From the NCBI GenBank assembly GCA_018655275.1, contig JABIJZ010000010.1, positions 9,274-73,273 on the forward strand: a DNA stretch of 64,000 bases, in the 5' to 3' direction. Shown piece after piece: positions 16,611-46,603 of this stretch. The DNA comes from Candidatus Peregrinibacteria bacterium. GTDB taxonomy: Bacteria; Patescibacteriota; Gracilibacteria; UBA1369; LOWO2-01-FULL-3. The notes under the pieces are model-generated. The model saw only the letters and a program-made list of their open reading frames with translations. It did no database searches and had not been told where the DNA came from. How positions within the stretch are numbered: the first letter of the stretch is position 1; the number at the start of each line of letters is the position of its first letter. The position numbers and the translations under genes were made by a program.

Positions 16611-16639
16611 TTGACAAAATCCACAAAAGAGTATAGAAT
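16611..16639 (+). promoter_or_regulatory. Candidate sigma70-type promoter for the SLH surface protein gene
   Basis: TTGACA (16611-16616), a 17-nt spacer, then TAGAAT (16634-16639), about 55 nt upstream of the ATG at 16693. Confidence 0.45.
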
Positions 16640-16692
16640 CGCCTCTTAATTTTAGTGCCTTTATTTCGTCAACACTCATAACCCTAAAAATT

Positions 16693-18396: not shown

Positions 18397-18455
18397 TCGC
18401 ATCGCGCACAATGTGCGCACCGCGCGTTAACCACACGCACGAATACTGGAGGAAG

Positions 18456-18483
18456 AAAAAGACCCCTGAAAAGGGGTTTTTTT
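18456..18483 (+). terminator. Rho-independent terminator
   Basis: AAAAAGACCCCT-GAAA-AGGGGTTTTTTT: a stem with a GAAA loop followed by a T7 run, 60 nt after the stop at 18396. Confidence 0.7.
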
Positions 18484-18544
18484 CTAGCTCAATTCTATGG
18501 TACATTACGAGTTGATCAATAACCTCAACCTAACCTCACTCATT

Positions 18545-18973: not shown

Positions 18974-18976
18974 CCA

Positions 18977-20290: not shown

Positions 20291-20333
20291 AAGAATTTTT
20301 ATTTATAAAGGTGCTCACCATGGGCTCGCACTG

Positions 20334-26236: not shown

Positions 26237-26608
26237 ATGGTGGTAGACTTCGAGGAAATCAAAGGCTTAGAACTCAGCGCACCAGAAATAGAAAGAGCTG
26301 ACGTAGACACTCAGCTCGATATCTTTCGGCTAGTTTCAGCTACAAAAGAAGAAATTGCAAAAGTATACGCCACAGTAAAGGACAAAGATGACGACACAAG
26401 CAAACTCCTGACATCTTTACTTTCAAAATACTATCATATGAAGGGTGAAGTCAGCAGCAGATCAATGCCAAAAGACGACATCACCGCCCAGCTTTCCAAA
26501 GAAGACCTTCCAGAGGACATCTTGGACCAGTTCAACGCTTTAGCCTGTAGCGGAATCAGAATCATTAGCATTAAAGGTAGTCGAACACCAAAGAAAGGAC
26601 ATGTCTGA
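26237..26608 (+). CDS. Hypothetical acidic protein carrying one copy of the repeat module found in the next gene
   Basis: A 123-aa ORF whose stop overlaps the next start (ATGTCTGA). Its C-terminus DILDQFNALACSGIRIISIKGSRTPKK resembles the repeat ends of the 553-aa protein. Confidence 0.5.
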   Translation: MVVDFEEIKGLELSAPEIERADVDTQLDIFRLVSATKEEIAKVYATVKDKDDDTSKLLTSLLSKYYHMKGEVSSRSMPKDDITAQLSKEDLPEDILDQFNALACSGIRIISIKGSRTPKKGHV

Positions 26609-28262
26609 CGTCTTGAACTGGACAGTAGTAAATCCAAACGTAAAGGTCGTAAGCTATGTGCCAGAAGAAGTAGAAGCACTTCACAGACGAATAAGAACCC
26701 AAATAGATGCCCCAGAAAACAGATCAAATCAAATATGGCAAAAAGCCGAACATTTAGTAGGTAAATTTTCAGCTACATCATTAGATGAGTTAGAGGACGC
26801 ATTAGGCGCAGACGATATACAGAAGCTGTTGGCAAATATAAATAAATACGCTCTAAACAAAATAGGAGCAGAAATACACATCCGCAACGACATGGCAGTC
26901 CTAAGCGAAATGGGGCAAGCCCCAGTCGTAGTACTAGGTCACCACAAGCCGGCACCAGCTCCAGCAGAAGAAAGCGAAGATCCAGTGACTCACGAACTTT
27001 CCCCAAAAGAATACGAAAAAGCAGAAAATATAGCGGCTGCTTTAGTCGCAGAATCAAAAGCAGATCCAAGAGCAACAACAACTAAAAGAAGAGGAAAGCG
27101 AGACCACGCAGAATACACAAGAGAAACCGCCAGAGAAAGGCGATTAAAAATAGCAAGCAGATTCATAGAAGCAATGATCAAACACAAAGAAGGGGTGCCA
27201 ACAGCAGCGTTAACAAAACATTTAAATTATGTAGGCCTAACAGCAGAAGATCTAATGGGTAAGCCATTAAAAGAAGCGAACAAAGCTCTTAAAACAGTTG
27301 GATTACAAATAGAAGTCAGAGACGGTAAACTTCTCATCCTCACAAAAAAAGAAGAGAAACTGGAAACTCCAAAAAGACCACGTGGCTCACGTAAAAAAGA
27401 AGTTGAAGGCATACAAGGCGTAGAAATTCCTCTACGTGAAGGCCTAAAAAACCTCCCGGAAGAGTTCCTAATACTATTAGATCGAATGGGAAGAGTTTAT
27501 CCTCATTTGAAAAGAAACTATAAACGAGTCGGCGCAATAATGAGAGTAATGTCTCAATTTCACAAGGGGATTCATATAGAAGACATTCCTGTTCTTTTGA
27601 AAGAGCAATACAAAGTCAGGTCAACAAAAGAGCAAGCATTTAATGCACTAACGAATATAGTTGACAACCTTTTAAGGGATTTCGGAATAAGCTTGCAAGT
27701 CGAAGATGGATCTGAAAAAGCCCGATTAGTATTAGATTTAGAAGGAAACAAAGAGCTCAAGGTGGTATTTGAGGCATTTGCAAGAAATCTCAAGGAAAAA
27801 GAAGCAGCCCTGAAACTAAGGGCGGAAAGGGCAGCAACTTTAGCAGAAAGGCTTCAAGAAAAAAACACAGCTGCCATGTTGGAACGCCACGAAAAAAGAG
27901 CTGCCTACCTAGAATCAATAAAAATTGAAGGAACCAAACGTGAAGAAGTTTTAGCCTTCGCAGAAGAGAAACTAGCAAAGGGAAATTACAGGGGTGGAGG
28001 TTCATATAAATATGGAGCCATAATAAAAGAAATCGCAAGCCCCACCCGGAAGCCAATAACGCGAATGGGACTCATTTCAATCCTATCTCTTAGATACCAA
28101 ATAGAAATCACAAAAGCTGACCTAGCAAAAATGATAAATAATATAAATTTAAACGAGCTAAAACCAAAACTAAATGTCAAAATTTTAGCCCACCAAGACA
28201 AACTAAGGATGGTCAACGTAATAGAGGGTGATAAAGACGATGACGAAGATTCAGAAGACTAA
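26601..28262 (+). CDS. Hypothetical protein with four internal repeats, possibly winged-helix-like modules
   Basis: The repeats end in ALNKIGAEIHIRNDMAVL (aa 84-101), ALKTVGLQIEVRDGKLLIL (229-247), LLRDFGISLQVEDGSEKARLVL (357-378) and LNELKPKLNVKILAHQDKLRMV (517-538). Linkers are basic or coiled-coil and the tail is acidic. No known family recognised. Confidence 0.55.
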   Translation: MSDVLNWTVVNPNVKVVSYVPEEVEALHRRIRTQIDAPENRSNQIWQKAEHLVGKFSATSLDELEDALGADDIQKLLANINKYALNKIGAEIHIRNDMAVLSEMGQAPVVVLGHHKPAPAPAEESEDPVTHELSPKEYEKAENIAAALVAESKADPRATTTKRRGKRDHAEYTRETARERRLKIASRFIEAMIKHKEGVPTAALTKHLNYVGLTAEDLMGKPLKEANKALKTVGLQIEVRDGKLLILTKKEEKLETPKRPRGSRKKEVEGIQGVEIPLREGLKNLPEEFLILLDRMGRVYPHLKRNYKRVGAIMRVMSQFHKGIHIEDIPVLLKEQYKVRSTKEQAFNALTNIVDNLLRDFGISLQVEDGSEKARLVLDLEGNKELKVVFEAFARNLKEKEAALKLRAERAATLAERLQEKNTAAMLERHEKRAAYLESIKIEGTKREEVLAFAEEKLAKGNYRGGGSYKYGAIIKEIASPTRKPITRMGLISILSLRYQIEITKADLAKMINNINLNELKPKLNVKILAHQDKLRMVNVIEGDKDDDEDSED

Positions 28263-29080
28263 TTCAAAAGCTTAACCAGATTCTGTACCTGCAGATGATA
28301 ATCTTTTGCATAAGCAAAACCGTACATAGTTGCTCCCATTCTCACAGTCAAAAAGGCGACATGCTGCCTTCGCAAATCATTCATATAAAAACTAGCATCC
28401 CCAAATGTATTAGTTTCATTCACCTCAACTTCAAGTCCTTCCGAAGCTCTCACTTTCAAAACACTATAAAGCTCCCCAACAGTCCCAATATCCTGAGGAC
28501 GAATCACGTAGACTTTTGCATACGATTGCTGGCCATTCGTTATTGAATATTTATCAACATTAATCCCATACAAATCCCCAACAGTCACGGTCTTATACAA
28601 GAATCCATCGAAATCTTCAGGCTCAAGGTACGCTCCAGTAAATCCACTATTCTGAATTTGTTCATTGGTCAAATAAACCTTTGTAGCAGCATGATCGTAA
28701 CTACTAGAAAAATCCTCCAAATCAAAAGTAGAATCACCAAGTGAACCTCCACTCAACTCTCCAGTCGGCTCCAAAAACCCATCATTCTCAAAAACAAAAG
28801 TATCCAAAGAGTTTGAATCAAAACCAGTTCCAACAGGCGTTTCTTCTACAACTTCTCTTACAATTTCATTTGGGACATTAGTAAATTCATCAGCACCCAA
28901 AACATTCGCATTTATCGCTGCAGAAATATCCAACTCATTCGGCAAATTATACCCACCATCATCATTAGCATTCTCCGTTCCGCCCTGAACCTCAGGCAAA
29001 TATTCATTAACAAACATCTCAGCCGCAACGACCACAACGATTATTGTAAGTATGACTGTGAAGACAGTGAACTTTTGCAT
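28259..29080 (-). CDS. Hypothetical N-terminally anchored extracytoplasmic protein
   Basis: Has an N-terminal TM segment (FTVFTVILTIIVVVVAAEMF) followed by a 240-aa acidic, Asn/Gly-rich domain. No homology recognised. Confidence 0.5.
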   Translation of the reverse strand: MQKFTVFTVILTIIVVVVAAEMFVNEYLPEVQGGTENANDDGGYNLPNELDISAAINANVLGADEFTNVPNEIVREVVEETPVGTGFDSNSLDTFVFENDGFLEPTGELSGGSLGDSTFDLEDFSSSYDHAATKVYLTNEQIQNSGFTGAYLEPEDFDGFLYKTVTVGDLYGINVDKYSITNGQQSYAKVYVIRPQDIGTVGELYSVLKVRASEGLEVEVNETNTFGDASFYMNDLRRQHVAFLTVRMGATMYGFAYAKDYHLQVQNLVKLLN

Positions 29081-30345: not shown

Positions 30346-31401
30346 ATGCTAAAAAAGATTTTCAAATTCCTTCTGGAGGCCGGAGTAATAACAGGCCTAA
30401 TCTTAATGTTTATCCAAGTTCCAATCACATTGGCGGCAACAGCTCATTCCGCAACAACTGCGGCAATCGCAACAGAAACAGAAGTTCAAGACTCAATGCT
30501 TCTGGCGGCAACAACTTCAAAAACTTCAATCCCGTTGCCAGACGGCTCAAGGTACGAATACATTCCAACACCTGCCGCAGGGCAAACAGCCAAGCAAACA
30601 ATATCAGTAGTAATAGAGCAAGCGATAGGTTATTTCAAAATTCTGATAGGAGGTGTGGCGATAGGATTTATAATCTTTTCGGGAACAAGACTAGTGGTAT
30701 CAGGAGGGGACGAAGAGGCAATCAAAAAAGGAACAAAAGGACTTTTATTTAGTATAGCGGCCCTCGCGATAATTTCATTATCCGAAGAGGTCGGAGTTTT
30801 GGTCGGATTTTTCCAAGGGGAAACCCCGACAGGAGGTATAATCAAAAGCCCAGGAGAAATCTTGAGACGAGTACACATTTTCGATAGACAGGTGGAAATC
30901 GTAATGACATTTATAAAATACTTAATAGGATCGTTGGCAGTACTCATGATTGTAGTCAACGGAGTGAAGTTGGTGGTAGGTGGCGGTGAAGAAGAAAATA
31001 CAAAAAAGGCGAGGAACGGAGTTGTATACTCACTTCTTGGATTAGTTTTATTGGTTTTCGGAAGCACTTTGATCAATGACGTTTTCTACAAAGTGGACAA
31101 AAACGTCTACTCTGGAATGGAATCAGTTACGCCAACAGTAGACCTAGCAAGAGGTGTGAACGAAATAGTCGGTATCACGAACTTCATAGTAAGTTATGTA
31201 GGTCCGGTGCTCCTATTGTTATTGTTAATTGGAGGGGTTCTATACCTGACTTCGGGAGGGGAAGAAGAGAATATGAATAGAGCAAAAAGATTGATAATCG
31301 CGGCACTAATAGGTGTGGTCGTAATATATGGGGCGTTTGCTGTCGTGAGTACGATAGTCTCAGGCTCATTTTCTGCAACCGCAAATGAATTAATAACTTA
31401 G
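30346..31401 (+). CDS. Membrane protein with three tandem VirB2/TrbC-like (CPR T4SS-pilin-type) two-TM modules
   Basis: The modules lie at aa 93-147, 185-243 and 276-336. Each is hydrophobic helix - GG(D/E)EE..(K/R)KA(K/R) loop - hydrophobic helix, for example FIKYLIGSLAVLMIVVNGVKLVVGGGEEENTKKARNGVVYSLLGLVLLVF. Confidence 0.7.
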   Translation: MLKKIFKFLLEAGVITGLILMFIQVPITLAATAHSATTAAIATETEVQDSMLLAATTSKTSIPLPDGSRYEYIPTPAAGQTAKQTISVVIEQAIGYFKILIGGVAIGFIIFSGTRLVVSGGDEEAIKKGTKGLLFSIAALAIISLSEEVGVLVGFFQGETPTGGIIKSPGEILRRVHIFDRQVEIVMTFIKYLIGSLAVLMIVVNGVKLVVGGGEEENTKKARNGVVYSLLGLVLLVFGSTLINDVFYKVDKNVYSGMESVTPTVDLARGVNEIVGITNFIVSYVGPVLLLLLLIGGVLYLTSGGEEENMNRAKRLIIAALIGVVVIYGAFAVVSTIVSGSFSATANELIT

Positions 31402-31408: not shown

Positions 31409-32452
31409 ATGAAAAACCAAATTAAAAAATGGACAAAAAGATTCGTAATAGCGTTTTTGCTAATAAATTTGGGCCTAACAACTTACACAACATATGCGGC
31501 AGATGATGAAGCAAATCCCGCGGACGCACCTCAAAGCATGGGAGAAATAGACCCAAGAATGGCGCCATCGGGACAATTGCTGGAAGTCGGAGGGAGTACA
31601 GGATTACCTGATTTTAATCTCGGTAGTGGGCAGCACCCGGATGCACCGACAGACGCTGAGTACGCAGGTGCGGGAACAATAGGAAGTGTGATTTATTTCT
31701 TGTTAGATTTGTTCAAATATCTGATGAGCGGTGTCGCGATAGTGATGATTATTGTGTATGCGATACGATTCATTGTTCAAGGAAGCAACGAAGAGGACAT
31801 AAAGAAAGTTCAGAAAGGGCTGGGAGTTTCGATCGCTGGATTGATAGTGATTCAGTTGGCAGACATATTGGTGAAACAGGTCTTCTTTGGAGATTACGGA
31901 GAAGTTTTGGAAGATAAAACGAGCGCTCAGATGTTTGCTGAAGCAGGAAGTGATCAAATCAGAGGCATCATAGGGTTCATCCAATTTGGACTCGGTGCAA
32001 TTGCGGTACTTATGATAATTATAAACGGACTCAGGATAATGGTTACAGGTATGAATGAAGAAGGAAGGAAAAAAGCTTTGAAAAACATCGGATTTGCTGT
32101 TGGAGGATTGATACTAATAGCATTGTCAGAGGTTGTAGTGAGAGCATTCGTATTTCCGGACCAAGGAGATTCACTGCCTTCAGTTGATGCTGGCCAGTCA
32201 TTGATAATGATGCTTACCAACTTTATATCCGGATTTGTGGCAGTACTTTCATTCGTGATGTTACTATACGCAGGATACCTATATGTAGTTGCGGGAACAG
32301 ACGACACAACAAAGGACAAAGTAAAAAAAATACTAACAGGCGCAATTATAGGAATTGTTTTATCATTGAGCGCCTATGCAATAACAAACACGCTGGTCAG
32401 GTTTGAAGAACCAAACGAATACATACCAGCCGGAGAAAATATTGTGAATTAA
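31409..32452 (+). CDS. Paralogous membrane protein with three tandem VirB2/TrbC-like two-TM modules
   Basis: Has a signal/anchor, then three modules: LFKYLMSGVAIVMIIVYAIRFIVQGSNEEDIKKVQKGLGVSIAGLIVI, FIQFGLGAIAVLMIIINGLRIMVTGMNEEGRKKALKNIGFAVGGLILI and FISGFVAVLSFVMLLYAGYLYVVAGTDDTTKDKVKKILTGAIIGIVLS. Confidence 0.7.
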   Translation: MKNQIKKWTKRFVIAFLLINLGLTTYTTYAADDEANPADAPQSMGEIDPRMAPSGQLLEVGGSTGLPDFNLGSGQHPDAPTDAEYAGAGTIGSVIYFLLDLFKYLMSGVAIVMIIVYAIRFIVQGSNEEDIKKVQKGLGVSIAGLIVIQLADILVKQVFFGDYGEVLEDKTSAQMFAEAGSDQIRGIIGFIQFGLGAIAVLMIIINGLRIMVTGMNEEGRKKALKNIGFAVGGLILIALSEVVVRAFVFPDQGDSLPSVDAGQSLIMMLTNFISGFVAVLSFVMLLYAGYLYVVAGTDDTTKDKVKKILTGAIIGIVLSLSAYAITNTLVRFEEPNEYIPAGENIVN

Positions 32453-32512
32453 TTTTGAAAATATCACTTAGGAATATATAATTAACAATTGAAATAAATA
32501 GCCTCATATACT

Positions 32513-35500
32513 ATGAAAAAAATCAAGAAACTCTTACTAGCCTTAGGAATCAGTTCAATGCTGCTAGCTGGGTCATCTTTGGTGTTAGAACAAGTCCCAA
32601 ACACAGCACATGCTGGAGACGATATCTGCTCAGATATCAGCTCAGGATTTTTCCAATGTCCTACAGATGAAATTTCCTTCACAAAATACACAGGAGAATT
32701 GGTAAAAATTAGCCCAGAAGGCTACGACCCAGGTTTAACCAGAACTGGAAGTGTCCGAGAATTCATCCAGAAAATCGTGAATTATGCTCTGTCCTTCCTA
32801 GGATTAGTGGCAGTACTCTTGATTATATACGCTGGTGCAATGTATTTGACGGCAGGAAGTAATCAAGAAAATTCAGACAAAGCAAAGAAGACAATAGGAT
32901 ACACAGCGGCAGGATTACTTTTGATAATGGCTTCATATGCCATCGTCAACACCATCCTCACAGGCCCATTCGAAGGTGATAGGGCTACAGAGGGGGCAGT
33001 AGGAGGGTTGGCAGCAGAAGGCTTCAATGTCCACACAAAAGACATCATAGCTTCTGCGGAAAACGTAGTAAAAAGCTACAAATACCTAATAGACGGAGCT
33101 GAAACATTGAAAGTTTTGACAGAAGATGCACAAAAATCGAGTTTGGGCGGCTCACAAGTCTACGATAGTGGAAGTGAATCAGCCAAGATTTTTGGGGAAA
33201 CTAGTTCTATACCAAAAGTATCAAGATCATCAGTTTTGCAATACCTTAACGGAGCAAAAACAAAACTTCAAAATCTAAGATACCAAGCTCCAACATTCTC
33301 AAGCATACCAGTAAAAATCAATTTTATTACAAGATACATCGACCAAAAAATCGATGAAATCGAAAGTTTAAACAAAGTCGAGTATTTCAACGCAGATGGG
33401 CTAACAGCAACTGCGGACAAAGAAAACGACGCCTTTCTATGGATCGACAAACAAATCGACAAATCCGGCAAAGACATCGTTCTATACAAAGACGATCCAG
33501 GTAGCGCGAAACATCCACATGGAATGTATGACTACAACGGTGACAAAAAAGCAAATCTATACGAAATTTGGGACCACATAAGAAAAGAATTAATAGATGG
33601 ATCTCTCGTAGACGGAGAAAATTATTCAATTGCAACTATCATGGGCGAAATGAAAAAAGAATTCGCAGGTCCAAGCGACAAATTAGAAGCAGGCGGCTAT
33701 TTCGACACAGTAAGTTGTTCAGCTGCAGGGACACCAAAAGTAGACTCAGAAGGCAAGGTTGTTCTTGACGCAAATGGCAACGTCACATGGGAAAAAGGAG
33801 GAGAACCTGCGGAAGGAATGTTAGCTAAACAATATTGTGTACTTAAGAATGTATATACAGAAATAAGCCGGTTGGATATTTTCCAAAACACAGTAATCCC
33901 ACAGCTATACAATACATTGAGTGCCTCATTTGATTTACTGGGACAAGAAGTGTGGAATGAGAATTTTATAGAAAATCCATCATTTGCAAACGAGCATTTG
34001 GTATCAATTATCCAGACCGAAGACGAGCTGGTAAAATCGATAAAAGACATCAAGTTTGTACAAACAAAACTTGTTGCAAGTACAGTAGAGGGTACATCTC
34101 CATTGATCGTGCATTTCGACGTATTGAACTCACAAGATCCGTCAGGGGAAGCAGTCACAGAAGAACGAATTGCTTGGGATTTAATGGGCGATGGATTTAA
34201 CACAGCAGACACAAGATGTTACTCAACTTTCAAGACTCCAGCTGAGGCAGATGAGTCAGACGGATTCCTGAATTATTGCGTGTACGACAGGCCGGGATTA
34301 TACAGAGCTACAGCCAAAATCCTTTCAAGCAATCCAGCAGAATACGCAGCTGGAATAAGCACAATTGATATCAAAGTCCGACCTCCTGACACATTGATCG
34401 CGCTTAGCGCATCTCACAACGGAGTGGCCGAGCCAATTTGGCTAATAGACTACGGAAAAGAAGGCGAGGATGGATACGAAGGAGTTTTGAGAACTTCAAA
34501 AGACTCAATCAAACTCCCACTAAAATTCGCAGAAGACCCCGGAATAACATTTAGTGCTAAAAGAACAGCGGATCTTGGAGGCCAAGGCGACGGACAAACA
34601 ATCATAAACTACAAATGGGATTTCGGAGATGGAACTTCGGAAGAAGGCCCAACAAAAATAGAAGTGGAAGACAAAGAATATGACAACGAAGGCGTCTACA
34701 CAGTGACTCTTGAAGTTGTCGAAGCAGACGGTAGCAGCGCAAGAAAGATGTTCAACGTAGTTGTTGGATCGCCAGCTGCACACATCAAAATGTCTCCAGG
34801 CAAAAAGACATTCAATCTTGGAGAGACAGCCTCATTCGACGCTTCACGATCATCAACTGACGAAGGAAAAATCACTTCATACGAGTGGGAGTTAACAAAA
34901 AAAGCAGTAACTTTGGACTCAAATGGCGATGCCATCGTTCCAAACGATAACGACACAGTGGAAACATATAATGAAGAAGCAGAGAAATCTTCAGAAAAAG
35001 TATTTAATCACAAATTCACAGAAACCGGTCTCTACAAAATAGAGCTTAAAGTAACTGATTCATTGGACAATACAGACGACATAGATGTCTCAGAAATACT
35101 TGTTGTTTCTCAGCCACCAGTGCCTCTGTTCTCATATACTGTGCCGGACAAAAACACTCCATCTGAGTACCATTTTGACTCTTCAAAAACATATGATCCA
35201 GACGGAGATATCGATACGGATAGTGTGATCAAATACAAATGGACAATCGAACCAAACACCGAAGACAAAGTCACAGTAGAAGGCGGAGAGACCTCTCTCT
35301 TAAAAGAAAATCCAATAGTAACTTTCGAAGAAGCAGGTGATTATAAAGTCACTTTGACAGTTTCAAACGACGAACCAAACTCAGAAGAAGTTTCACTAGA
35401 AAAAACACTCACAATCGAAAACGTCCTCGACGTAAAGTGGTCGAAACAATCAGGCGAAGAGCTTACAACTTCTACAATAATGCTGGACGAAGAAGGCAAA

Positions 35501-37540
35501 GCTGAAGTCACAGTCGCTTTCGAAAGCAAAAGAGCAATCGCCTACGAAGTTAATTTCGGAGACGGCGAAACATCTACAGGCGAGATCGAAAAAAACGGCG
35601 GCCCAACAAAAGCTTTCCACACATACAGAGAGTCAGGAAAATTCAACATAAAAGTTACAGTCTACGATGAGACTGACGCCTCAAATGACATAATCAGGAA
35701 AGTATTCGTGGGGAACGGAAAAAGCCCAGTGGCTAAGATAAAAGTATTTATAAATGGAGAGGAATACGTTGGATACGAAGAGCCTCTAATGATCAGCAGA
35801 GCGGACGTTATAACATTCGATTCTTCTGACTCAAAAAACACAGACGGAACAGGCAGAGACTTGAAATACGTTTGGGATTTCGGAGACGGGGACAAAAGTA
35901 CAAAAAGAACAGTCTTCCACAAATTCGACGAAGTCAGCCCAACTCCTCCAGGATTTTATTGGGTAAAATTAATCATTTACGACAAAGACGATCCAACTCC
36001 AAGTCTAGACGACCTTGAGGAAGGAAAAACAGAAAAAGGCGACCTAGCCAAATTGAAGATAAACGTGGAACCAAAAGACCCACAATTCTCTTCACTACAA
36101 GCAATTCCAGCAATGGGAGAAGACTTGGTAACGCCAGTGGGAGTTAACCTTTCTGTATACGGTGCAAAAGACCCAGACGGGAAAATCACCCAATACAAAT
36201 GGTGGTACTACGACATCGAAAATGCTGACGAAGAGCTAGGACTTCAAGTTACACAGTCACCAACAGCAGCCATAACAATAGGTACAAACGGTGAAGAAGG
36301 AGAGCCAAAAACATACAGATTTGGTGTCGCAATTACAGATAACGAAAACAACACAGTAATGTCAGAAGGTGCAGACGACGAAGACAAGAATCAGCTTCCA
36401 CAAAACATGATTCCGGAGCAAGACGTGACGAACGGACCAAATTCAGTGCCTCTTGCGAAATTCTCAGTAGACAGAACAAAAGTCTTCGCGGGCGATCCAG
36501 TTAACTTCTCATCAAGCTCAAAAGACAAAGACGGTAAAATCGCAGAATACATTTGGGATTTCAAAGGAGACGGATTCTTCAATGACGCAGGGAAGCCAGA
36601 ATACAACAAAGCAACAGTCTCATACACATACGACGAGAAAAATCTAAACGGATACAAAGTTCGACTGAAAATTGTGGATAACGAAGGCGCAGAAGCTGTA
36701 TCTCAGCCAATTAGCGTGTTCATAGACTCAAATGCAAATCCACCAAAAGCGGCGTTCAAACACGAAGTCATAGGTGGTAAAACAGTCCAATTCACAAACA
36801 ATTCAGAAGCTGACTCAGAAGCCGACGCATCAATAAAAGAATACAAATGGGATTTCGACATCGCTTCTCAGTTCGATTCAGCCGATGCAGATGGCGACGG
36901 AACAAAAGACAACGATTTCGAATCTGATGAGAAAAATCCGACATTCACATACGATGAATTCGGAATCTATCAAGTAAAATTGACAGTCAAAGACGACAAA
37001 GGAAACGTTGAGTCAGTTACCAATATGGTGAACGTAACAGCCCTCTCAGGACCTGGAAGTGCAAGCGGCGGAACAATGGGCGACAGCCTACTTGGCACAC
37101 CAGCAGGCGGAACATCAACGCAAGATCCTCTGACACTAACAGGAGGAACTACATTAGGAGGTCTAGACGCTGAGCCAGGCGCAGGAATTGGCACATCAGC
37201 TGGCGCAGGAACAACTTTGTCAGGACTTCAAGCAATATTGATTTCAAACCCACTTCCAAATAATCAAGGAGTGGTAGCTCTTCCAGGAGACGCAGGCGAA
37301 ATCACTTTCGATTTCTCTCAATCAAACGGAAATATCGCATACTATATATTAGATAAAAATATTTATTTCGACACAAACGGTGACGGAATGAAAAACAATG
37401 ACGCAGATTTCAAAACTAGTCTTCCCGGACAATGGACTACCAATTTTGAGGAAGAATGGGGTAAGATCGTAGTAAAGTTAACCGTGACTGATTTGGATGG
37501 AAATTCTCATTCAACAGTACAAGAAGTCACATTTAAATAA
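32513..37540 (+). CDS. Giant (1675 aa) surface protein: signal peptide, one VirB2/TrbC-like two-TM module, then about 10 PKD-type Ig repeats
   Basis: The N-terminal module is at aa 83-150 (IVNYALSFLGLVAVLLIIYAGAMYLTAGSNQENSDKAKKTIGYTAAGLLLIMASYAIV). PKD signatures recur: WDLMGDGF, WDFGDGTSEEG, VNFGDGETS, WDFGDGDKS, WDFKGDGFF, YKWDFD, each followed by Y.V.L.V.D. Confidence 0.8.
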   Translation: MKKIKKLLLALGISSMLLAGSSLVLEQVPNTAHAGDDICSDISSGFFQCPTDEISFTKYTGELVKISPEGYDPGLTRTGSVREFIQKIVNYALSFLGLVAVLLIIYAGAMYLTAGSNQENSDKAKKTIGYTAAGLLLIMASYAIVNTILTGPFEGDRATEGAVGGLAAEGFNVHTKDIIASAENVVKSYKYLIDGAETLKVLTEDAQKSSLGGSQVYDSGSESAKIFGETSSIPKVSRSSVLQYLNGAKTKLQNLRYQAPTFSSIPVKINFITRYIDQKIDEIESLNKVEYFNADGLTATADKENDAFLWIDKQIDKSGKDIVLYKDDPGSAKHPHGMYDYNGDKKANLYEIWDHIRKELIDGSLVDGENYSIATIMGEMKKEFAGPSDKLEAGGYFDTVSCSAAGTPKVDSEGKVVLDANGNVTWEKGGEPAEGMLAKQYCVLKNVYTEISRLDIFQNTVIPQLYNTLSASFDLLGQEVWNENFIENPSFANEHLVSIIQTEDELVKSIKDIKFVQTKLVASTVEGTSPLIVHFDVLNSQDPSGEAVTEERIAWDLMGDGFNTADTRCYSTFKTPAEADESDGFLNYCVYDRPGLYRATAKILSSNPAEYAAGISTIDIKVRPPDTLIALSASHNGVAEPIWLIDYGKEGEDGYEGVLRTSKDSIKLPLKFAEDPGITFSAKRTADLGGQGDGQTIINYKWDFGDGTSEEGPTKIEVEDKEYDNEGVYTVTLEVVEADGSSARKMFNVVVGSPAAHIKMSPGKKTFNLGETASFDASRSSTDEGKITSYEWELTKKAVTLDSNGDAIVPNDNDTVETYNEEAEKSSEKVFNHKFTETGLYKIELKVTDSLDNTDDIDVSEILVVSQPPVPLFSYTVPDKNTPSEYHFDSSKTYDPDGDIDTDSVIKYKWTIEPNTEDKVTVEGGETSLLKENPIVTFEEAGDYKVTLTVSNDEPNSEEVSLEKTLTIENVLDVKWSKQSGEELTTSTIMLDEEGKAEVTVAFESKRAIAYEVNFGDGETSTGEIEKNGGPTKAFHTYRESGKFNIKVTVYDETDASNDIIRKVFVGNGKSPVAKIKVFINGEEYVGYEEPLMISRADVITFDSSDSKNTDGTGRDLKYVWDFGDGDKSTKRTVFHKFDEVSPTPPGFYWVKLIIYDKDDPTPSLDDLEEGKTEKGDLAKLKINVEPKDPQFSSLQAIPAMGEDLVTPVGVNLSVYGAKDPDGKITQYKWWYYDIENADEELGLQVTQSPTAAITIGTNGEEGEPKTYRFGVAITDNENNTVMSEGADDEDKNQLPQNMIPEQDVTNGPNSVPLAKFSVDRTKVFAGDPVNFSSSSKDKDGKIAEYIWDFKGDGFFNDAGKPEYNKATVSYTYDEKNLNGYKVRLKIVDNEGAEAVSQPISVFIDSNANPPKAAFKHEVIGGKTVQFTNNSEADSEADASIKEYKWDFDIASQFDSADADGDGTKDNDFESDEKNPTFTYDEFGIYQVKLTVKDDKGNVESVTNMVNVTALSGPGSASGGTMGDSLLGTPAGGTSTQDPLTLTGGTTLGGLDAEPGAGIGTSAGAGTTLSGLQAILISNPLPNNQGVVALPGDAGEITFDFSQSNGNIAYYILDKNIYFDTNGDGMKNNDADFKTSLPGQWTTNFEEEWGKIVVKLTVTDLDGNSHSTVQEVTFK

Positions 37541-37554: not shown

Positions 37555-39711
37555 ATGTTCAGTTTGCCTGACAAAAAACCAGTCAAGGCCTCTGAGAAAT
37601 TAGCGGCAAAGCCGCAAGCGCAAGAAGCGGCGAAACCGCAAGAAGCGCCACTTCTCAAGCCCCAAGAACAAGCAAAACCAAAATCAAAATTCAAAGAAAC
37701 TTTAACATTAGTAGGCGCAATATTAGGCGGACTTTCTGCCCTATACCTAGCCTTTACTTTTTATGTGATCGGAACCGCTAAAGAGGGCACAGAGCTCTCA
37801 ATCATCGGAGCTGGAACTCCAGCCTTCCTGAACGGATTAGTTGTTGGAGTATACATCGTATTATTCTTGGCAGCATTGGTCACATGTGTATGGGTTATCA
37901 TACCACTTTTCAAGATGCTTTTGGCGAAGAAAGAAGAAGTTGATAAGAAGAAAAAAGCAAAAAAACACGTGATAATCGCTGGAATCTTGTTGGGAGTACT
38001 TTTGATCGCATGGGGAACTGCATTTGTTTATTTGGAAAATAGAAGAGATGTTTTGAAAATAAACGTAGTTCATGCACCGATCGAAACTGAACCTTCAGAC
38101 ACACTTCAATTATCAGCTCCAGTTACAATAAAATTTGACGCAACTCACGCTGAAATAGATCCACAAAACTATAGAGTAGTTCTATATAATTGGGATTTTG
38201 GCGACGAAGAATCAGAAATCGGAGACGCGATAGTAACCCACGAATTCACACAAAAAGGAAGTTACATCGTCACATTAACAATCGAAAAAAGAAACGTCCA
38301 CACAGGAGAAACAGCAAAAGACACCCACACAAAAGAAGTCTCAATCACAAACCAATCTCTAACGGCAGCATTCACAGTCGAGCCACAAGCCGGGGAAGCA
38401 CCATTAGAAGCCATTTTTGACGCTTCTGATTCGATAGACCCAGACGGGAGAATCGGGAAATACGAATGGGACATCGACGGAGACGGCCAATTCGAAGAAG
38501 AATACGAAAACCAAATCACGGTTGAACACACTTTCGAAAAAATTGGAAACTACGAAGTTTTCCTAAGGATTACTTCATTAACAGGTGAAGATTACGAAAC
38601 AACAAAGAAGCAAGTTATCGTCACAAAAGGCGAAACACCCGCCGCAATAATCGAAGTACAAGGTGAACCTGCAACATACGAAACAGGCGTATCTTATATA
38701 TTTAAAGGCGGCGAATCAGTTTCCCCAAACGGAGACATCCTAGCTTATTCATGGGATTTCGATGATGGCTCAGCAATAGAAGATACAAAAACTGTTAGCC
38801 ACACATTCGACACAGAAGGTGTATACAACGTAATCCTGACCGTCACAGACGAGGAAGACAAAGAAGGAGAATCATTACTCGAGATAGTGATAGGAACAAA
38901 GCCTGGTACACCTCAAGCAAAAATGACTACAGATCCGGCTTTGGAGGACGGAGCACTAGCAATAGTAGGAGATTCTCCACTCACAATTTCCTTTGATGGA
39001 AGCGTATCAACAGACTCAGACGAAAATATCCTCGAATATGAATGGGATTTTGATAACGATGGTGAGGTCGATGAGTATGGCAAAAAATCAAGCCATACAT
39101 ATATAAAGGAGGGGACACACACCGCAAGACTTACAGTCACAGATGCTGACAACAACGTAGGAACAACAACAATTGGAATACAAGTATCAACTCCAGGAAT
39201 CAAAGCAAAATTAACAGCTGAACCAATCAACGGAGAAGTTCCATTAACAGTTAAATTTGACTCTACCGGGTCATCTCATCCAGGAGCTGAGATATCTAGC
39301 TACAAATGGGATTTCGGAGATGGAACAAGCCCAACCTTGGGTTCAGGCAAAATCAGCCACAAATACATAGAAATCGGAGAATATACAGCGATCGTCACAG
39401 CAATCGGTAGTGACAACACAAAAGCAACTGAAGAAGTTTATATAACTGTAAGGGCAGTCCAGGTTTCAGCTTGTTTCGATGCTTCACCCAAAACAGGTGT
39501 AGCACCTCTAAAAGTAAGTCTAGATCCAGATTGTAGTACAGGTACAATTACAGGTTATAACTGGGCATTTGGAGACGGTTCAAGTGCAGCAGAAGTCAAA
39601 CCTGAACACGAGTTCGACAAACCAGGAGTTTACCCTGTCACACTCGAGGTATCAGACAACGACAACAACGTATCGAGCACAACAATGAATGTCACAGTTA
39701 CAGCAGAATAG
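37555..39711 (+). CDS. Membrane-anchored protein with about 7 PKD domains
   Basis: A Lys/Pro/Gln/Ala-rich N-terminus is followed by three TM segments. PKD motifs then follow: WDFGDEESE, WDIDGDGQFE, WDFDDGSA, WDFDNDGE, WDFGDGTSP and WAFGDGSSA. Confidence 0.8.
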   Translation: MFSLPDKKPVKASEKLAAKPQAQEAAKPQEAPLLKPQEQAKPKSKFKETLTLVGAILGGLSALYLAFTFYVIGTAKEGTELSIIGAGTPAFLNGLVVGVYIVLFLAALVTCVWVIIPLFKMLLAKKEEVDKKKKAKKHVIIAGILLGVLLIAWGTAFVYLENRRDVLKINVVHAPIETEPSDTLQLSAPVTIKFDATHAEIDPQNYRVVLYNWDFGDEESEIGDAIVTHEFTQKGSYIVTLTIEKRNVHTGETAKDTHTKEVSITNQSLTAAFTVEPQAGEAPLEAIFDASDSIDPDGRIGKYEWDIDGDGQFEEEYENQITVEHTFEKIGNYEVFLRITSLTGEDYETTKKQVIVTKGETPAAIIEVQGEPATYETGVSYIFKGGESVSPNGDILAYSWDFDDGSAIEDTKTVSHTFDTEGVYNVILTVTDEEDKEGESLLEIVIGTKPGTPQAKMTTDPALEDGALAIVGDSPLTISFDGSVSTDSDENILEYEWDFDNDGEVDEYGKKSSHTYIKEGTHTARLTVTDADNNVGTTTIGIQVSTPGIKAKLTAEPINGEVPLTVKFDSTGSSHPGAEISSYKWDFGDGTSPTLGSGKISHKYIEIGEYTAIVTAIGSDNTKATEEVYITVRAVQVSACFDASPKTGVAPLKVSLDPDCSTGTITGYNWAFGDGSSAAEVKPEHEFDKPGVYPVTLEVSDNDNNVSSTTMNVTVTAE

Positions 39712-39810: not shown

Positions 39811-42800
39811 ATGGAGGAAAAGATATACCCTTTACAGGTAGCTCAATCCAAGGAAATCAAATCCTTGATGACCAAAAAGGCCAAAAAGCCTGGCTTCAAG
39901 GACTGGATAAAAGGCCGAAAAAGCATGGTCATTGCAGTATCTGTAGTGGCACTTTTGGCTTTAGGAACAGTAATGTACGCAAGTGGATTGGGAGGGAGCT
40001 TGATGGGTTTGTTAGGGGATGATGCAGCTTCATTAACTGCTGTGCCAGAACAATTTAAACCATCATCTAACCAAAGTGTCGAAATCCAATACACTCTTCC
40101 AGCTGAATTCGGCACAGCATATGGCCTTCCAACAGAAGAAGCAACAGTAACTCTAAAAATATTAGATCCAGATGGCACCGAAATTAAAAAATTTGAGAAA
40201 TTGCAAGCTACAAACACAGGCAGTTTTATATGGGGTGAGTCAGGCGAGCTAGAGTCTCTCTCTTCTGGGGAATACACATTATTCTTGAACGCATATGGAG
40301 GTCAAGGTACAGGTGTTGCTATAACTGCTTTCGAGACAATAACGGTTTTAGAAAAGACGGCAATAGAAGGTACAGCAGGAACAGCAGACCCAAAAACAAC
40401 TATTTCAGTAAATGTGGTGCCGGAGGAGTTTACACCATCAGAAGACGAAGAAGTTGAAATCCAATACTCACTTCCAGATGGATTTGGTGAGGCATCGGGT
40501 CCTTTAACATCAACAGTAACAGTAACTCTGGAAATATTAGGTCCAAGTGATAACAACATCTTAACTACATCGGAACCTTCAAGCCCAGGTATCTTCACAT
40601 GGGCTGGCTCAATTGGGGCAAATTATGTCTCACCTGGGGAATATTCAGTAAACTTAACCGCAACTGCAAACACAGGTGGTTTTGCATATGGTTCAACAAC
40701 TATGACAGTACTGGCAGCGGCGGAAACAGCAACAGCAGCTATTGAGCCACTAGCCTTAAATCTAGAGCTGGACAAAGCTACAATTTTAGAAGGAGAAGGA
40801 ATGGGCATAAATATAAATCCAACTCAATCTCTGTCTTTACATGAGATTCTTATAAAAAACAGTTCTGGGGCTTTAGTATTTTCTATACTAAAAAATAATT
40901 CAGAAGAGAACACCACAGGTAGTTATGCCTGGGATGGGAAAGATAGAAATGGGGAGTTTCTAGAAGTAGGTGTTTATAAAGTGGTCGTCACAGGAAAAGC
41001 TGCAGCAGGAGGTGAAGAAAAAACAGAAGAAAAAGCATTCACTATAACGGAACCAACACCAGGCTCAATCACAGTCTGGACAGAACCAGACACCATATGG
41101 CTCCCTGGGGAGATAACTGTCAAATGGGAAACAGAAGGGGACGTAAAACCAATAACCAATATAGAAATTTGGCATAGATACGGGATAGGAGGTCAAACAA
41201 TGGTAGCAAATCCAGGCTATCCTATTGAATGTTCAGAAAACATTTGTTCAAAAACATGGTTATGGGAAGAAACTGATGACACTGCGATTGAAACAGGGGC
41301 ATATTTTGTAGTAGTTGAAGATGAAAATGGAGTTAAAGGCCAAAGTGAAGATTTTCAAGTAAAAAAAACTTTAACCATAAATCTAAGCAAATACCAAGTA
41401 GAAGAAGGTGAAGGTTTCGAAATACAATTATCAACAGCTCCAAGGGGAACAATAACAGTATATGATCTAGCAATCGTAAGAGAGGATGGGTCTTTAGTTA
41501 ACAACCTAGTTCCAGGCACAGGGTCAATAACAGTGTCAGGAGAAACAACAGAGACAGTAATCTGGGATGGAACGATAGACCAAAGGGAACAGGGAACAGA
41601 TCCAGTAATAGCGGCTCCAGGCAATTATAAAGTTAGATACAAGCTAACATCAAAAGGTGATACTTATGAATACATTCCTTTCACAATCGTAGAAGAAGTA
41701 GTAATGGGGGTAACCATTGAGCCTTCAGGTTCAATAGAAATTTATGAAAGTGAAACAGTTTTTTTCATAGCTTTCATAAAAAACGGACAGAGCCCTTTGA
41801 CATTCGATATAAACTATGGAGATGGAGAGGAGGAGTCAATATCTTCAAACCAGGGAATGATAGACTTCTTTCACGAATTTTCATTACCTCCTAATACAAC
41901 CACAGAAACTTATACAGTCACAGTGGAAGTTACAGATGTTGAAGGGAAAATAGCCTCAATAGAAAAGCAAGTAACAGTAAACAAAAACGATTACCAAATC
42001 ACTATCAATTCAACTCCTCTTGCTCAACAATATCAAGATCAACCAGTAAATATAGCAGTTGCAGTGACAGACGGTCAAACACCGTACAACCTGTTAGTTG
42101 ATTATGGTGATGGCAGCCAAAAGGAAGCAAGAATGAATGTAGGTTCTGGTGTAGAATCTCATGATTTTACACACACATACGCAGAACCAGAAGTTTATAC
42201 ACAAACATTCACAGTAAATAAAGATGGTATAGGTGAAAAAGTAGCAACAAGAACATACACAATCCTAGAATCAAATGAAAATAAAACAGATCCTTTATTG
42301 TTCGATAAACTCACAATAGATCCTCCATTTCAACAAACAGTAGGCGGAGATGTAAGTATCACCGCAAAAGTAATAGGAGGCTCAGGAGAATACAATTACA
42401 CTTACTACAGCTCAGTTGCACCTGATCCATTTGCATTGGGGGCGAATTCATACGTTAAGGCCAAAGAAGACTTATTTGTAGTTAATGATTTCCCGATTGG
42501 AAACTATTCTATCTATGTAGAAGTTCAAGACGTAAACAACCCAGATACAATAGTAAAGTCCATCATATCAGCATACAAAATAGTATCCGTCGAAGAAAAT
42601 CCTTTAACATCAGTAGCCATTACAGCAGCCCCTCCAGGCCAACAAACATTAAATGGAGACGTCACAGTAACTGCAACTGCTACAGGAGGTTCAGGTAAAT
42701 ACAACTACACATACAAAGACGAAATGCCTAACGCAGTAGGTTTAATTCATCAAAATGTTGAAAACAATACAGATTCAAATATATTCCAACCTTTAAATGC

Positions 42801-43683
42801 AGGGGTTCATACTTTTTCTGTAACCGTAAGAGATGTAGAAACAGAAATAGAAATAAAAGAAACCATTACCTATACAATGGTGGAAGCAGACAACACAGCC
42901 AAAGCTTGCGCGAACGGAGTAGACGATGATGGTGACGGAAAAATCGATGCATACGACCCAGGTTGCGATTCCGACCAAGATGACGACGAACACAATACCG
43001 TTGACGACAACAACAATAACAATAACTATAACAACAACAACGACTACGAAATCTGCTCAAATGGAAAAGACGACGACGGAGACGGCAAAGTCGATTACCT
43101 CGACTCAGACTGTAAACTCCCAAAGAGTGCAGTGATGGACGTATACAACGCGACAGCTTCACCAAAATCATTCAACCCACACGTATACTCAAGCAAGATA
43201 AGTTGGTGGATGGACAAAGACGCATACGTTGACGTTGTAATAGAAGATCCACAAAGCAGCCTAGTTATTCAATTAGTAGACAATAAACTTCTAGACGATG
43301 GCTTCAACGAAGTTTGGTGGGAAGGAACAAAAGACAATAAAACAACAGGAACAATAGTTCCAGACGGAACATACAACTACGTAATAACAGCTACAAACAA
43401 AAAATACGAAACAGTCTCAGACACTCAAGAAGGAGTTATCACAGTTAGCACCTCAGACGGAGCTACTGGCGCACAAACTCAAGACATCGAAGACGTAAAC
43501 ACCGGCGGTGGAACAAGCGGTGTTGCTAGTGGAACAACAGGCGGTCAAACAACATTTGACCAAATCGCCCAAGCTTCAATGCAAAATGCACAAGCCGGCG
43601 AAACTGCAGGCACAGGTCCTGGAATCTTAGTATACTTCTTATTCCCATTATTTGCTTTCGCATTTAATCGGATTAAATCTTAA
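39811..43683 (+). CDS. Large (1290 aa) surface protein: N-terminal anchor, Ig-like/FlgD-Ig-like/PKD-like repeats, two Cys-bounded DDDGDG motifs, poly-Asn, C-terminal TM plus basic tail
   Basis: N-terminal TM is MVIAVSVVALLALGTVMYA. Repeats have the pattern VEIQY(T/S)LP..FG. Also present are YGDGEEES/YGDGSQKE PKD-like cores and CANGVDDDGDGKIDAYDPGC plus CSNGKDDDGDGKVDYLDSDC. A FlgD-Ig-like domain (FNEVWWEGTKDN..VPDGTYNYVITA) follows. The protein ends in GTGPGILVYFLFPLFAFAFNRIKS. Confidence 0.75.
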   Translation: MEEKIYPLQVAQSKEIKSLMTKKAKKPGFKDWIKGRKSMVIAVSVVALLALGTVMYASGLGGSLMGLLGDDAASLTAVPEQFKPSSNQSVEIQYTLPAEFGTAYGLPTEEATVTLKILDPDGTEIKKFEKLQATNTGSFIWGESGELESLSSGEYTLFLNAYGGQGTGVAITAFETITVLEKTAIEGTAGTADPKTTISVNVVPEEFTPSEDEEVEIQYSLPDGFGEASGPLTSTVTVTLEILGPSDNNILTTSEPSSPGIFTWAGSIGANYVSPGEYSVNLTATANTGGFAYGSTTMTVLAAAETATAAIEPLALNLELDKATILEGEGMGININPTQSLSLHEILIKNSSGALVFSILKNNSEENTTGSYAWDGKDRNGEFLEVGVYKVVVTGKAAAGGEEKTEEKAFTITEPTPGSITVWTEPDTIWLPGEITVKWETEGDVKPITNIEIWHRYGIGGQTMVANPGYPIECSENICSKTWLWEETDDTAIETGAYFVVVEDENGVKGQSEDFQVKKTLTINLSKYQVEEGEGFEIQLSTAPRGTITVYDLAIVREDGSLVNNLVPGTGSITVSGETTETVIWDGTIDQREQGTDPVIAAPGNYKVRYKLTSKGDTYEYIPFTIVEEVVMGVTIEPSGSIEIYESETVFFIAFIKNGQSPLTFDINYGDGEEESISSNQGMIDFFHEFSLPPNTTTETYTVTVEVTDVEGKIASIEKQVTVNKNDYQITINSTPLAQQYQDQPVNIAVAVTDGQTPYNLLVDYGDGSQKEARMNVGSGVESHDFTHTYAEPEVYTQTFTVNKDGIGEKVATRTYTILESNENKTDPLLFDKLTIDPPFQQTVGGDVSITAKVIGGSGEYNYTYYSSVAPDPFALGANSYVKAKEDLFVVNDFPIGNYSIYVEVQDVNNPDTIVKSIISAYKIVSVEENPLTSVAITAAPPGQQTLNGDVTVTATATGGSGKYNYTYKDEMPNAVGLIHQNVENNTDSNIFQPLNAGVHTFSVTVRDVETEIEIKETITYTMVEADNTAKACANGVDDDGDGKIDAYDPGCDSDQDDDEHNTVDDNNNNNNYNNNNDYEICSNGKDDDGDGKVDYLDSDCKLPKSAVMDVYNATASPKSFNPHVYSSKISWWMDKDAYVDVVIEDPQSSLVIQLVDNKLLDDGFNEVWWEGTKDNKTTGTIVPDGTYNYVITATNKKYETVSDTQEGVITVSTSDGATGAQTQDIEDVNTGGGTSGVASGTTGGQTTFDQIAQASMQNAQAGETAGTGPGILVYFLFPLFAFAFNRIKS

Positions 43684-45591: not shown

Positions 45592-46593
45592 ATGCCAGAT
45601 CTTCAGGATAAAGATACAGAAGCAGGTAAAAGAGATGGGTACGATTTGGTAGATGCTTTAGATACCGCAGGTAAGAGGGACTACACAGGAAGTCTTCATC
45701 ACAGATTTGTGCCTCTCGACACAATGGCGGGAGATATGCGAGAAACAAGAGCTGAATACATGGGCACAGACGCAGATTTGGTAGAAAGACTCATAGAAGG
45801 TAAAGCTACACCAGCAGAGGTAGATGGGCTAGTCGGACAACATCAAGCAGCACTAGATCAAATAGATGTGACGTCTGTTATGAGTGGAAAGTTGCAATTG
45901 GAAAACTTAGAAGATCTTGGGCTGATGTATTTGCAAAAAATATGTCTCAATTCTGCAGGCAGGATAAGGAGAAAGAACCAACCAGAGCTAACAAGTGGCG
46001 ATCCAGGCAGCGCAGGCGCGCCCATAAGACAGGCAGAAATGGCAAAAATGGCAGAGATAAAAGCCGACAAATCATTTCCAGCTACAGAAAAAAAAGAACA
46101 TCTAACAAGGCTAGGTTTTAAAGCATTGAAGACACTTGTGGAAAAAAGCACAACTCCACCTGCTTTTCTGGCTACTGCAGTCCTGAACGGATCCTATGAC
46201 AAAAAACTTGGGGATATATGTCCGGGAGAATTCACAGAATTATTAGAGGTATGCGTGAAACGTTGCAACGATGTCGCATTTTTCGATGCATATTGCAGAT
46301 TTAGATTGGAGAGAGGTGAAACTTCCCAAGTTCAAAAATTTATAAGAGAAAATGCCAGCAGTTTGATAAATCTACCATTGCACCTCTCAAGAACATTCAG
46401 AGAATGTGGAGACAAAAGCGACAAAACCAGACTAGAGTGGGTAAAACAAGTTGCGAAAAAAAGAAGAGGATTTACGGATTTAGTAGAATACTATTTTACA
46501 TATCTGATCCAATACAAAGGCGACTACAAGGGTGCAAAAAAAAATCCTAAAAAGACTAAAAGAAAAACATGTTCCAGATGCAAGAACACATGA
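45592..46593 (+). CDS. Hypothetical protein (333 aa), orphan
   Basis: A long ORF with normal coding composition and no recognisable motifs. Its lysine-rich 3' end overlaps the next ORF across an A9 tract. Confidence 0.5.
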   Translation: MPDLQDKDTEAGKRDGYDLVDALDTAGKRDYTGSLHHRFVPLDTMAGDMRETRAEYMGTDADLVERLIEGKATPAEVDGLVGQHQAALDQIDVTSVMSGKLQLENLEDLGLMYLQKICLNSAGRIRRKNQPELTSGDPGSAGAPIRQAEMAKMAEIKADKSFPATEKKEHLTRLGFKALKTLVEKSTTPPAFLATAVLNGSYDKKLGDICPGEFTELLEVCVKRCNDVAFFDAYCRFRLERGETSQVQKFIRENASSLINLPLHLSRTFRECGDKSDKTRLEWVKQVAKKRRGFTDLVEYYFTYLIQYKGDYKGAKKNPKKTKRKTCSRCKNT

Positions 46594-46603
46594 AGGAAAA
46601 AGC

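Follow-up and report, generated by a model that had tools for sequence, protein, structure and literature searches.

We analysed a 64,000-nucleotide (nt) stretch of DNA from a Candidatus Peregrinibacteria bacterium (assembly GCA_018655275.1, contig JABIJZ010000010.1; hereafter the window), which derives from marine metagenomes, and focused on one open reading frame (ORF) of this 1.2-Mb contig, termed gene C. Gene C is predicted to encode a surface protein in which a VirB2-like hairpin anchor is joined to ten PKD immunoglobulin (Ig)-like domains. It is the third gene of a four-gene cassette, A to D, and is followed by a further large gene, E (Table 1). An earlier reading made from the letters alone (the sequence-only reading) had described gene C as a single ORF of 1675 residues, and we confirmed this frame from its ATG to its TAA on the plus strand. 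Some Gracilibacteria recode TGA, and the nearest relatives of the window carry the Gracilibacteria label. In the host genome TGA works as a stop codon, including at ATGA gene overlaps; thus the translation with table 11 is valid.

Table 1 Features of the cassette and of gene C (window positions; aa, amino acids; TM, transmembrane)
Feature	Position	Strand	Description
Gene A	30346..31401	+	351 aa; signal peptide and three tandem T4SS_pilin hairpins (aa 79-158, 172-250, 264-342)
Gene B	31409..32452	+	347 aa; three tandem T4SS_pilin hairpins (aa 84-163, 173-252, 256-333)
Predicted sigma-70-like promoter	32455..32482	+	TTGAAA-16-TATAAT in the 60-nt gap between genes B and C
Gene C (fusion)	32513..37540	+	1675 aa
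Predicted signal peptide, gene C	32513..32614	+	aa 1-34; MKKIKK, hydrophobic core, AHA then G; from hydropathy
Predicted N-terminal extracellular segment, gene C	32615..32743	+	aa 35-77; from a seven-ortholog alignment
VirB2-like T4SS_pilin hairpin, gene C	32744..32962	+	aa 78-150; helix, loop TAGSNQENSDKAKKT, helix
Middle domain, gene C	32963..34039	+	aa 151-509; non-PKD, predicted mostly helical, with a variable inserted region
Nine PKD-like Ig domains, gene C	34040..37033	+	aa 510-1507; Pfam and iterated profile scan
Flexible Gly/Thr/Ala/Ser/Pro-rich spacer, gene C	37034..37282	+	aa 1508-1590
Tenth (terminal) PKD-like domain and stop, gene C	37283..37540	+	aa 1591-1675; profile scan, independent E-value 2.6e-6
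Gene D	37555..39711	+	718 aa; Lys/Pro/Gln-rich cytoplasmic start, extra TM helix, divergent hairpin, six PKD domains
Divergent pilin-like hairpin, gene D	37813..38037	+	aa 87-161
Gene E	39811..43683	+	1290 aa; N-terminal TM, FlgD-Ig and PKD-like domains, acidic double-disulfide repeats, C-terminal TM

Architecture of the gene C protein

Hydropathy analysis revealed three peaks in the gene C product, at aa 6-26, ~84-116 and ~127-153. The first lies within the predicted signal peptide, whose A-x-A-type site occupies an identical alignment column across orthologs and is probably cleaved. The segment behind it carries a Cys pair, C39/C49, and the conserved motif FTKYxGELVxISPxGYDPG. The other two peaks mark the hairpin, which the sequence-only reading had described as a two-TM module at aa 83-150 (nt 32759-32962), a description that holds up. 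The family PF18895 (T4SS_pilin; T4SS, type IV secretion system) matches aa 79-148 of the whole protein with 34.6 bits against a Pfam gathering score of 26.6, and aa 36-165 alone reach 40.3 bits over profile positions 3-71 of 71. The TrbC/VirB2 family PF04956 aligns in register to the same residues (E 6e-6, profile positions 35-98) with 26.8 bits, just below its gathering score of 27.9, and is also matched by 25 of 73 short relatives of the hairpin. Four of the five nearly invariant residues of the family are retained (G108, A124, K125 and G134). An AlphaFold2 model computed from a 73-sequence alignment is a helical hairpin of aa 78-113 and 118-150, with a predicted local distance difference test score (pLDDT) above 90. 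The flanks of the hairpin carry net charges of -4 (aa 35-82) and -3, and its loop a net charge of +1. Acidic flanks around a net-positive loop predict an N-out, C-out hairpin, and thus place the PKD array outside the cell. Some 1,525 residues follow the hairpin, and this extracellular part is strongly acidic (263 Asp/Glu vs 144 Lys/Arg).

The module had been thought to be shared with the two upstream genes. Its homology stood: in Smith–Waterman comparisons with the six upstream modules, the gene C module gave z = 10-19 over shuffles, being nearest to the third module of each upstream protein, and the same Pfam and NCBIfam profiles match throughout. The copy number did not, for genes A and B hold three modules each rather than one. 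The NCBIfam profile, NF045849, describes a pilin-like conjugal transfer protein of Mycoplasma integrative and conjugative elements (Mbov_0395 family). It links the hairpins of genes A to D to a monoderm T4SS with E 6e-8 to 1e-5, all scores lying below its 40-bit cutoff, and its mere 80 positions are consistent with small single-hairpin proteins, unlike the products of these four genes.

TM segments inflate similarity scores, and Foldseek returned only generic hairpins for the model; both points would suit a generic signal-anchor, in which the hydrophobic pair merely tethers a PKD adhesin and the likeness to the upstream genes is compositional. The match, however, exceeds the curated Pfam threshold with the loop motif in register, the nearly invariant family residues are kept save one, and one family recurs in four consecutive genes of nine lineages. 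Moreover, the hairpin is the best-conserved part of gene C and is free of indels, which argues against any generic anchor. We thus consider a tie through hydrophobicity only, an outcome that the sequence-only reading had allowed for, to be very improbable, and by these profile and alignment data the module is classed as a VirB2-like T4SS pilin hairpin rather than a generic anchor. Searches of PDB sequences with the pilin-family profile and with the N-terminal 530 aa of gene C gave nothing meaningful.

Two other assignments were rejected. A class III prepilin has a short basic leader with Gly at -1 and Glu at +5, followed by a long hydrophobic helix; gene C has a Sec-type signal with A-x-A, and no conserved G/(F,M)xxxE is found in the ortholog alignment, so it is not a type IV pilin. 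Nor is it a sortase-anchored (PrgB-type) T4SS adhesin, given that it has neither a C-terminal LPXTG nor a C-terminal TM; its sole LPXTG-like string is a chance VPNTA within the signal peptide.

Beyond the hairpin, the middle domain gave no sequence match in Pfam, NCBIfam or the PDB. Its helices come from a low-confidence AlphaFold2 model of aa 1-752 (two-sequence alignment, mean pLDDT 38). The PKD region is matched by PKD_4 (PF18911; 205 bits, E 1e-61) and PKD (PF00801; 165 bits, E 3e-49), each in six stretches, and an iterated profile scan resolved ten PKD-like domains, nine before the spacer and one after it, the first being weak. This count agrees with the about ten repeats recognised from the sequence, whereas the PKD array given there as 1,500 aa had to be shortened: together with its linker it spans ~1,160 aa and lies behind a ~360-aa middle domain (aa 151-509) that is not PKD. 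The Gly/Thr/Ala-rich spacer and the terminal beta-domain of the same reading are both present, the former with G/T/A/S/P at 46 of 60 residues (aa 1509-1568), the latter as the tenth PKD-like domain (aa 1591-1673). No SLH, LysM, LPXTG or other wall-binding motif was found in the gene C protein.

The cassette and its conservation

We compared the locus with those of eight further lineages, whose assemblies are labelled Candidatus Peregrinibacteria, Gracilibacteria or 'Patescibacteria group'. An earlier word-indexed search with gene C aa 1-522 had found two relatives only, and the orthologs were reached via the upstream gene: a search with the triple-pilin alignment gave 69 gene B orthologs at E<=1e-10. 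All nine lineages share the order of triple pilin, triple pilin, pilin–PKD fusion and TM plus pilin-like hairpin fused to six PKD domains, beside secE-nusG-rplK-rplA, and this order is kept even where gene B identity is only 33-39%. Protein sizes vary little, with gene A orthologs of 304-374 aa at the same position in the eight other lineages, gene C orthologs of 1534-1680 aa and gene D orthologs of 717-793 aa. The source databases name the gene C orthologs only 'PKD domain-containing protein', 'PKD repeat protein' or 'hypothetical protein'.

Conservation within gene C is uneven. In a comparison of eight full-length orthologs, conservation peaks in the hairpin, with 55% mean pairwise identity and 0 gaps, vs 18-54% elsewhere. 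The middle domain is the most variable (18-25% identity, 15-40% gaps), PKD1-5 show 32-40% identity and PKD6-9 45-54%, the spacer has 22% identity with 46% gaps, and PKD10 has 43% mean identity, or 57-70% to the closer orthologs. Ten PKD-like domains were counted in five of six full-length gene C orthologs and 11 in the sixth. Gene D has six PKD domains in all seven proteins examined (six orthologs including that of the window, and a counterpart in locus L048).

Locus L048 (GCA_028704165.1, Gracilibacteria; positions 9577-20160) holds two PKD-array genes, of 987 and 706 aa, within an array of ~11 T4SS_pilin genes, one of them a triple, and does not lie beside secE-nusG. Of the two PKD proteins, one combines a signal peptide with a helical region, and a pilin-like hairpin occurs in the other. 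Thus the association of pilin and PKD recurs in a second gene arrangement. A 143-aa pilin gene of this array ends 2 nt before the 987-aa PKD gene, and the pair may be an unfused counterpart of the gene C fusion; no similarity was found between the middle domain of gene C and the helical N-terminal region of this unfused PKD protein.

A profile search of 1.84 billion representative proteins with the module yielded 74,033 matches at E<=0.001. The best 150 of these all have 2-17 hairpins, most often three in ~320 aa, and the largest concatenate among them has 17 hairpins in 1775 aa. Ten long module matches bear no further Pfam domain. A scan of metagenome contigs was discarded, its pattern being a generic PKD motif that returned mostly unrelated PKD proteins, such as a BNR/PKD protein of locus L004 that has no pilin module.

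The neighbouring genes fill out this picture. The three-hairpin layout of gene A is given by PF18895 (72.2 bits, 3 stretches), by three domains in a local profile scan and by NF045849 at E 6e-8; that of gene B by PF18895 (74.4 bits, 3 stretches) with confirmation in the profile scan. In gene D the PKD domains are evident (PKD_4, E 7e-87), and its divergent hairpin, not detected by Pfam, was recovered by hhalign of seven gene D ortholog N-termini against the pilin family (95.5%, E 1.5e-8), with both helices and the loop in register. NF045849 matches gene D at aa 101-156 (E 1.2e-5), and the L048 counterpart scores 39.9 bits on the pilin profile. The cassette thus totals eight hairpins (3 + 3 + 1 + 1), two of which are fused to Ig-like stalks.

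The predicted promoter ahead of gene C agrees with the consensus at 11 of 12 positions and is the best plus-strand match, the total of such matches in the region being that expected by chance. Both hexamers align in 5-6 of 7 orthologous intergenic regions, including those of L050, L051, L053 and L056, a hint that genes C and D are transcribed apart from A and B. No cassette gene has a clear GGAGG ribosome-binding site. The leaders of A and E are A-rich; in B, C and D, the ATG is preceded at a distance of 8-14 nt by a CCT(C/T)A motif.

Gene E is matched by Pfam FlgD_ig (E 3e-14) and, through two acidic double-disulfide repeats, by NF033662 (42.9 bits vs a cutoff of 41). A poly-Asn run is present too. 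At its C terminus, gene E has a Gly/Thr-rich stretch and then TGPG, a hydrophobic helix and the basic tail NRIKS; this ending looks like an unclassified sorting signal. A large gene stands downstream of D in L051, L053 and L056, but only the L056 product has the PKD/FlgD_ig matches of gene E; in L055, L057, L059 and L060 such a gene is absent. Judged by this comparison, gene E is an accessory neighbour that is not retained in every lineage. Upstream, the cassette adjoins a minus-strand gene (28259-29080) whose 273-aa product matches no family and carries a TM helix at its N terminus; homologs of 220-299 aa lie between nusG and rplK in all related loci.

A putative model for the gene C protein and its alternatives

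The family membership and predicted topology of the hairpin, the domain layout, the synteny and the conservation pattern, as established above by sequence comparison, enable us to propose a putative model. In the R388 VirB2-type pilus the loop is turned towards the lumen, with the two termini exposed to solvent (10.1101/2024.03.04.583355); thus a C-terminal extension would emerge on the outer face. Given that an extension of 1,500 residues could not sit on each subunit of a VirB2 lattice, gene C would be a rare or minor subunit. Its hairpin would pack with the other seven hairpins of the cassette in a membrane pilin pool. If a pilus or short conduit is extruded, the same packing would be kept within that structure, pilin extraction being powered, as we assume, by a T4SS ATPase encoded elsewhere in the genome. 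The gene C subunit might then occupy the tip or the base, or be scattered sparsely over the shaft, and a tip position in particular is much less certain than the model as a whole. Its ten-domain stalk would measure ~35-40 nm when extended, as estimated from typical Ig-domain dimensions. Together with the six-domain stalk of gene D, it would reach past the wall and the surface layer (S-layer) and bind a host or partner cell. We give about an even chance to this model, in which gene C, as a modular VirB2-type pilin, uses its hairpin to associate with the co-encoded triple pilins and holds an Ig-like stalk outside the cell.

Several observations weigh against the model. Besides the sub-threshold PF04956 score, hhalign of the pilin family against the single R388 TrwL sequence gave nothing (probability 0.7%). 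Foldseek of the hairpin model against the PDB found no significant match (best E 1.6), an archaeal conjugation pilus ranking 38th with E 5.8, as a helical hairpin is too simple to discriminate. A pilus built of T4SS_pilin proteins is not reported in the literature cited here, and metatranscriptomes of the same study as the source metagenomes gave only spurious low-complexity matches and no transcript signal. Furthermore, neither VirB4, VirD4, VirB6 nor other T4SS machinery was detected by Pfam among ~25 scanned window ORFs of at least 150 aa, in precomputed Pfam lists covering 10 kb beyond either window end (~84 kb in total), or in such lists within 10 kb of the cassette in the eight related loci. 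In the class Gracilibacteria, T4SS components are mostly unclustered with virB4 and VirB6 is undetectable (PMC12102498), so the local absence of machinery is weak evidence; the supplementary tables of this survey do not list the related assemblies. Finally, the membrane-proximal middle domain is the most variable part of gene C and the distal PKD domains are better conserved. This argues against a simple variable-tip adhesin and leaves room for a basal anchor.

Such an anchor would make gene C the last subunit added to a triple-pilin filament, its bulk stopping growth and tying the filament to the wall or S-layer, with no host binding. The conserved distal PKD domains would then look as if they bound a conserved self component, and subunits of this kind occur in other pili, for example PamR as proposed in the Pam pilus of the Candidate Phyla Radiation (CPR) (bioRxiv 10.64898/2026.03.03.709456). 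A terminator is nevertheless decidedly unlikely in our view, for the wall-binding motifs sought in gene C are missing and it would call for the same co-assembly as the model proposed above.

The lack of a T4SS ATPase or channel gene near the cassette in nine lineages could also mean that no pilus is made. The VirB2-like hairpins would then form a membrane-resident platform, independent of a T4SS ATPase, that anchors two Ig-like stalks as fibrils of a coat or scaffold. In keeping with this, the cassette neighbourhood consists of the housekeeping genes secE, nusG, rplK and rplA rather than a secretion locus, the genome encodes several further large Ig-like and SLH surface proteins, and giant proteins bearing PKD and further domains have been held responsible for the fibrous surface of a related CPR predator (PMC8080830). 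However, a plain anchor needs neither eight hairpins in four genes nor the strongest purifying selection on the hairpin, T4SS parts of Gracilibacteria generally lie away from virB4, and VirB4 is present in 2,417 of 3,035 Patescibacteria assemblies (PMC12102498). We therefore regard the membrane platform as somewhat unlikely. At the other extreme, the cassette might encode a self-contained surface organelle of the Peregrinibacteria: concatenated pilins would form a heteromeric filament or conduit with adhesin arms, assembled without a dedicated local T4SS and possibly without VirB4, that serves host attachment and material exchange; we hold this to be quite unlikely.

Related systems and genomic surroundings

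Arrays of VirB2-like pilin genes are known in Patescibacteria and are essential in one cultured species (PMC10633639, PMC12102498, PMC12857230). They resemble the cassette in belonging to the same hairpin family, PF18895 (Wang et al. 2023, PMC10633639; Quinonero-Coronel et al. 2025, PMC12102498), in having a signal peptide and two helices with a short charged loop, in their several divergent side-by-side copies and in their monoderm CPR hosts. However, the 77 family members that we retrieved are single-hairpin chains of 67-154 aa, a small size that gene C with its 1675 aa does not share, its hairpin bearing ~1,525 extra extracellular residues. Genes A and B differ from them in having three hairpins per chain, and the cassette in having no virB4 nearby. 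The Patescibacteria T4SS survey and a review describe pilin gene arrays but no pilin–PKD fusion, and the survey, in whose arrays each pilin has a gene of its own, is silent on concatenated pilins (PMC12102498). Large surface proteins are mentioned in a Peribacteria genome paper and in the Vampirococcus paper, the pilin–PKD architecture in neither.

The canonical pilins VirB2, TrbC and TraA (R388 TrwL, F TraA) share with gene C the helix-loop-helix, the positive loop and the outward termini, in line with the weak in-register TrbC match. Unlike gene C, they measure ~70-120 aa and are encoded in operons with virB3-virB11, and the tip or adhesin subunit of canonical VirB/VirD4 systems is not part of the pilin but a protein of its own, VirB5. 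In logic, gene C comes closest to PilB of Streptococcus sanguinis (PMC8179133), a minor pilin that combines a filament-entering pilin module with an adhesion module. Gene C differs in its unrelated filament superfamily, its far larger extension of ten Ig-like domains and the absence of a class III prepilin signal. The tip proteins FimH, PapG and VirB5/TraC likewise couple a filament-joining and a binding part in a minor subunit, but the pilin domains of FimH and PapG are Ig-like and use donor-strand exchange, VirB5 is soluble and helical, and none is homologous to gene C. The phrase of the sequence-only reading, analogous in logic and not in homology to the tip adhesins of other pili, describes the case fairly. 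As a whole, that interpretation is supported in part, its minor pilin or tip adhesin being a putative role: it caught the homologous module, which the nine-lineage synteny and the outside placement of the PKD array now accompany, but missed the VirB2/TrbC identity, the triple copies and the hairpin of gene D.

Membership in the Pam pilus, a CPR-specific Ig-like filament whose PamR is a membrane-tethered Ig/FnIII protein (Troman et al. 2026, bioRxiv 10.64898/2026.03.03.709456), was rejected. PamR matches reach 36-46 bits vs a cutoff of 300; gene C itself scores 35.7 bits on NF058578 (PamR) with no separate significant stretch, and such weak matches are put down to generic Ig-fold similarity. 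Pam pilins use donor-strand exchange and PapD-like chaperones, unlike the cassette, in which Pfam and NCBIfam scans found no chaperone-like gene.

By its domain architecture, then, gene C is classed as a VirB2-type pilin that a giant Ig-like extension has turned into a modular protein, within a clade-wide cassette of concatenated pilins. The locus indicates that modularity, known from type IV pilins, extends to VirB2-type pilins, three of which can also be joined in one chain. Patescibacteria depend on other cells, and the one species examined genetically requires its VirB2-like pilin arrays. The T4SS survey looked for an adhesin and reported none (PMC12102498); the layout of gene C, its length and position conserved clade-wide and its flank occupied by triple-hairpin pilins, may represent the adhesin of Patescibacteria pilin gene arrays, and makes it a concrete candidate for the one sought there. 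Its large extracellular part also offers a handle, by tagging, antibodies or imaging, on whether and where T4SS_pilin proteins leave the membrane. Should the hairpin serve as no more than a membrane dock, the cassette would nonetheless represent a novel means by which these bacteria anchor surface fibrils.

Elsewhere in the window, FlgD-Ig and SLH domains are combined in large proteins at 16693-18396 and 52816-54558, as in two more genes just upstream of the window, a combination suggestive of a surface coat, either an S-layer or one anchored to the wall, through which any pilus or stalk would have to pass. Three large ORFs have at most a faint family assignment: a 1319-aa ORF (46532-50491) with no family match, a 1376-aa ORF (7876-12006) with a weak AAA_16 match, and an ORF for a 553-aa Lys/Glu-rich protein (26601-28262) that is found in only some related loci. 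The metabolic genes comprise a RuBisCO large-subunit homolog, pyruvate formate-lyase with its activase, purine biosynthesis genes and a near-complete histidine operon (50497-51792, 4596-7992, 18977-21836 and 55011-62966). This biosynthetic capacity exceeds that of most CPR bacteria and fits the Peregrinibacteria labels of the related assemblies.

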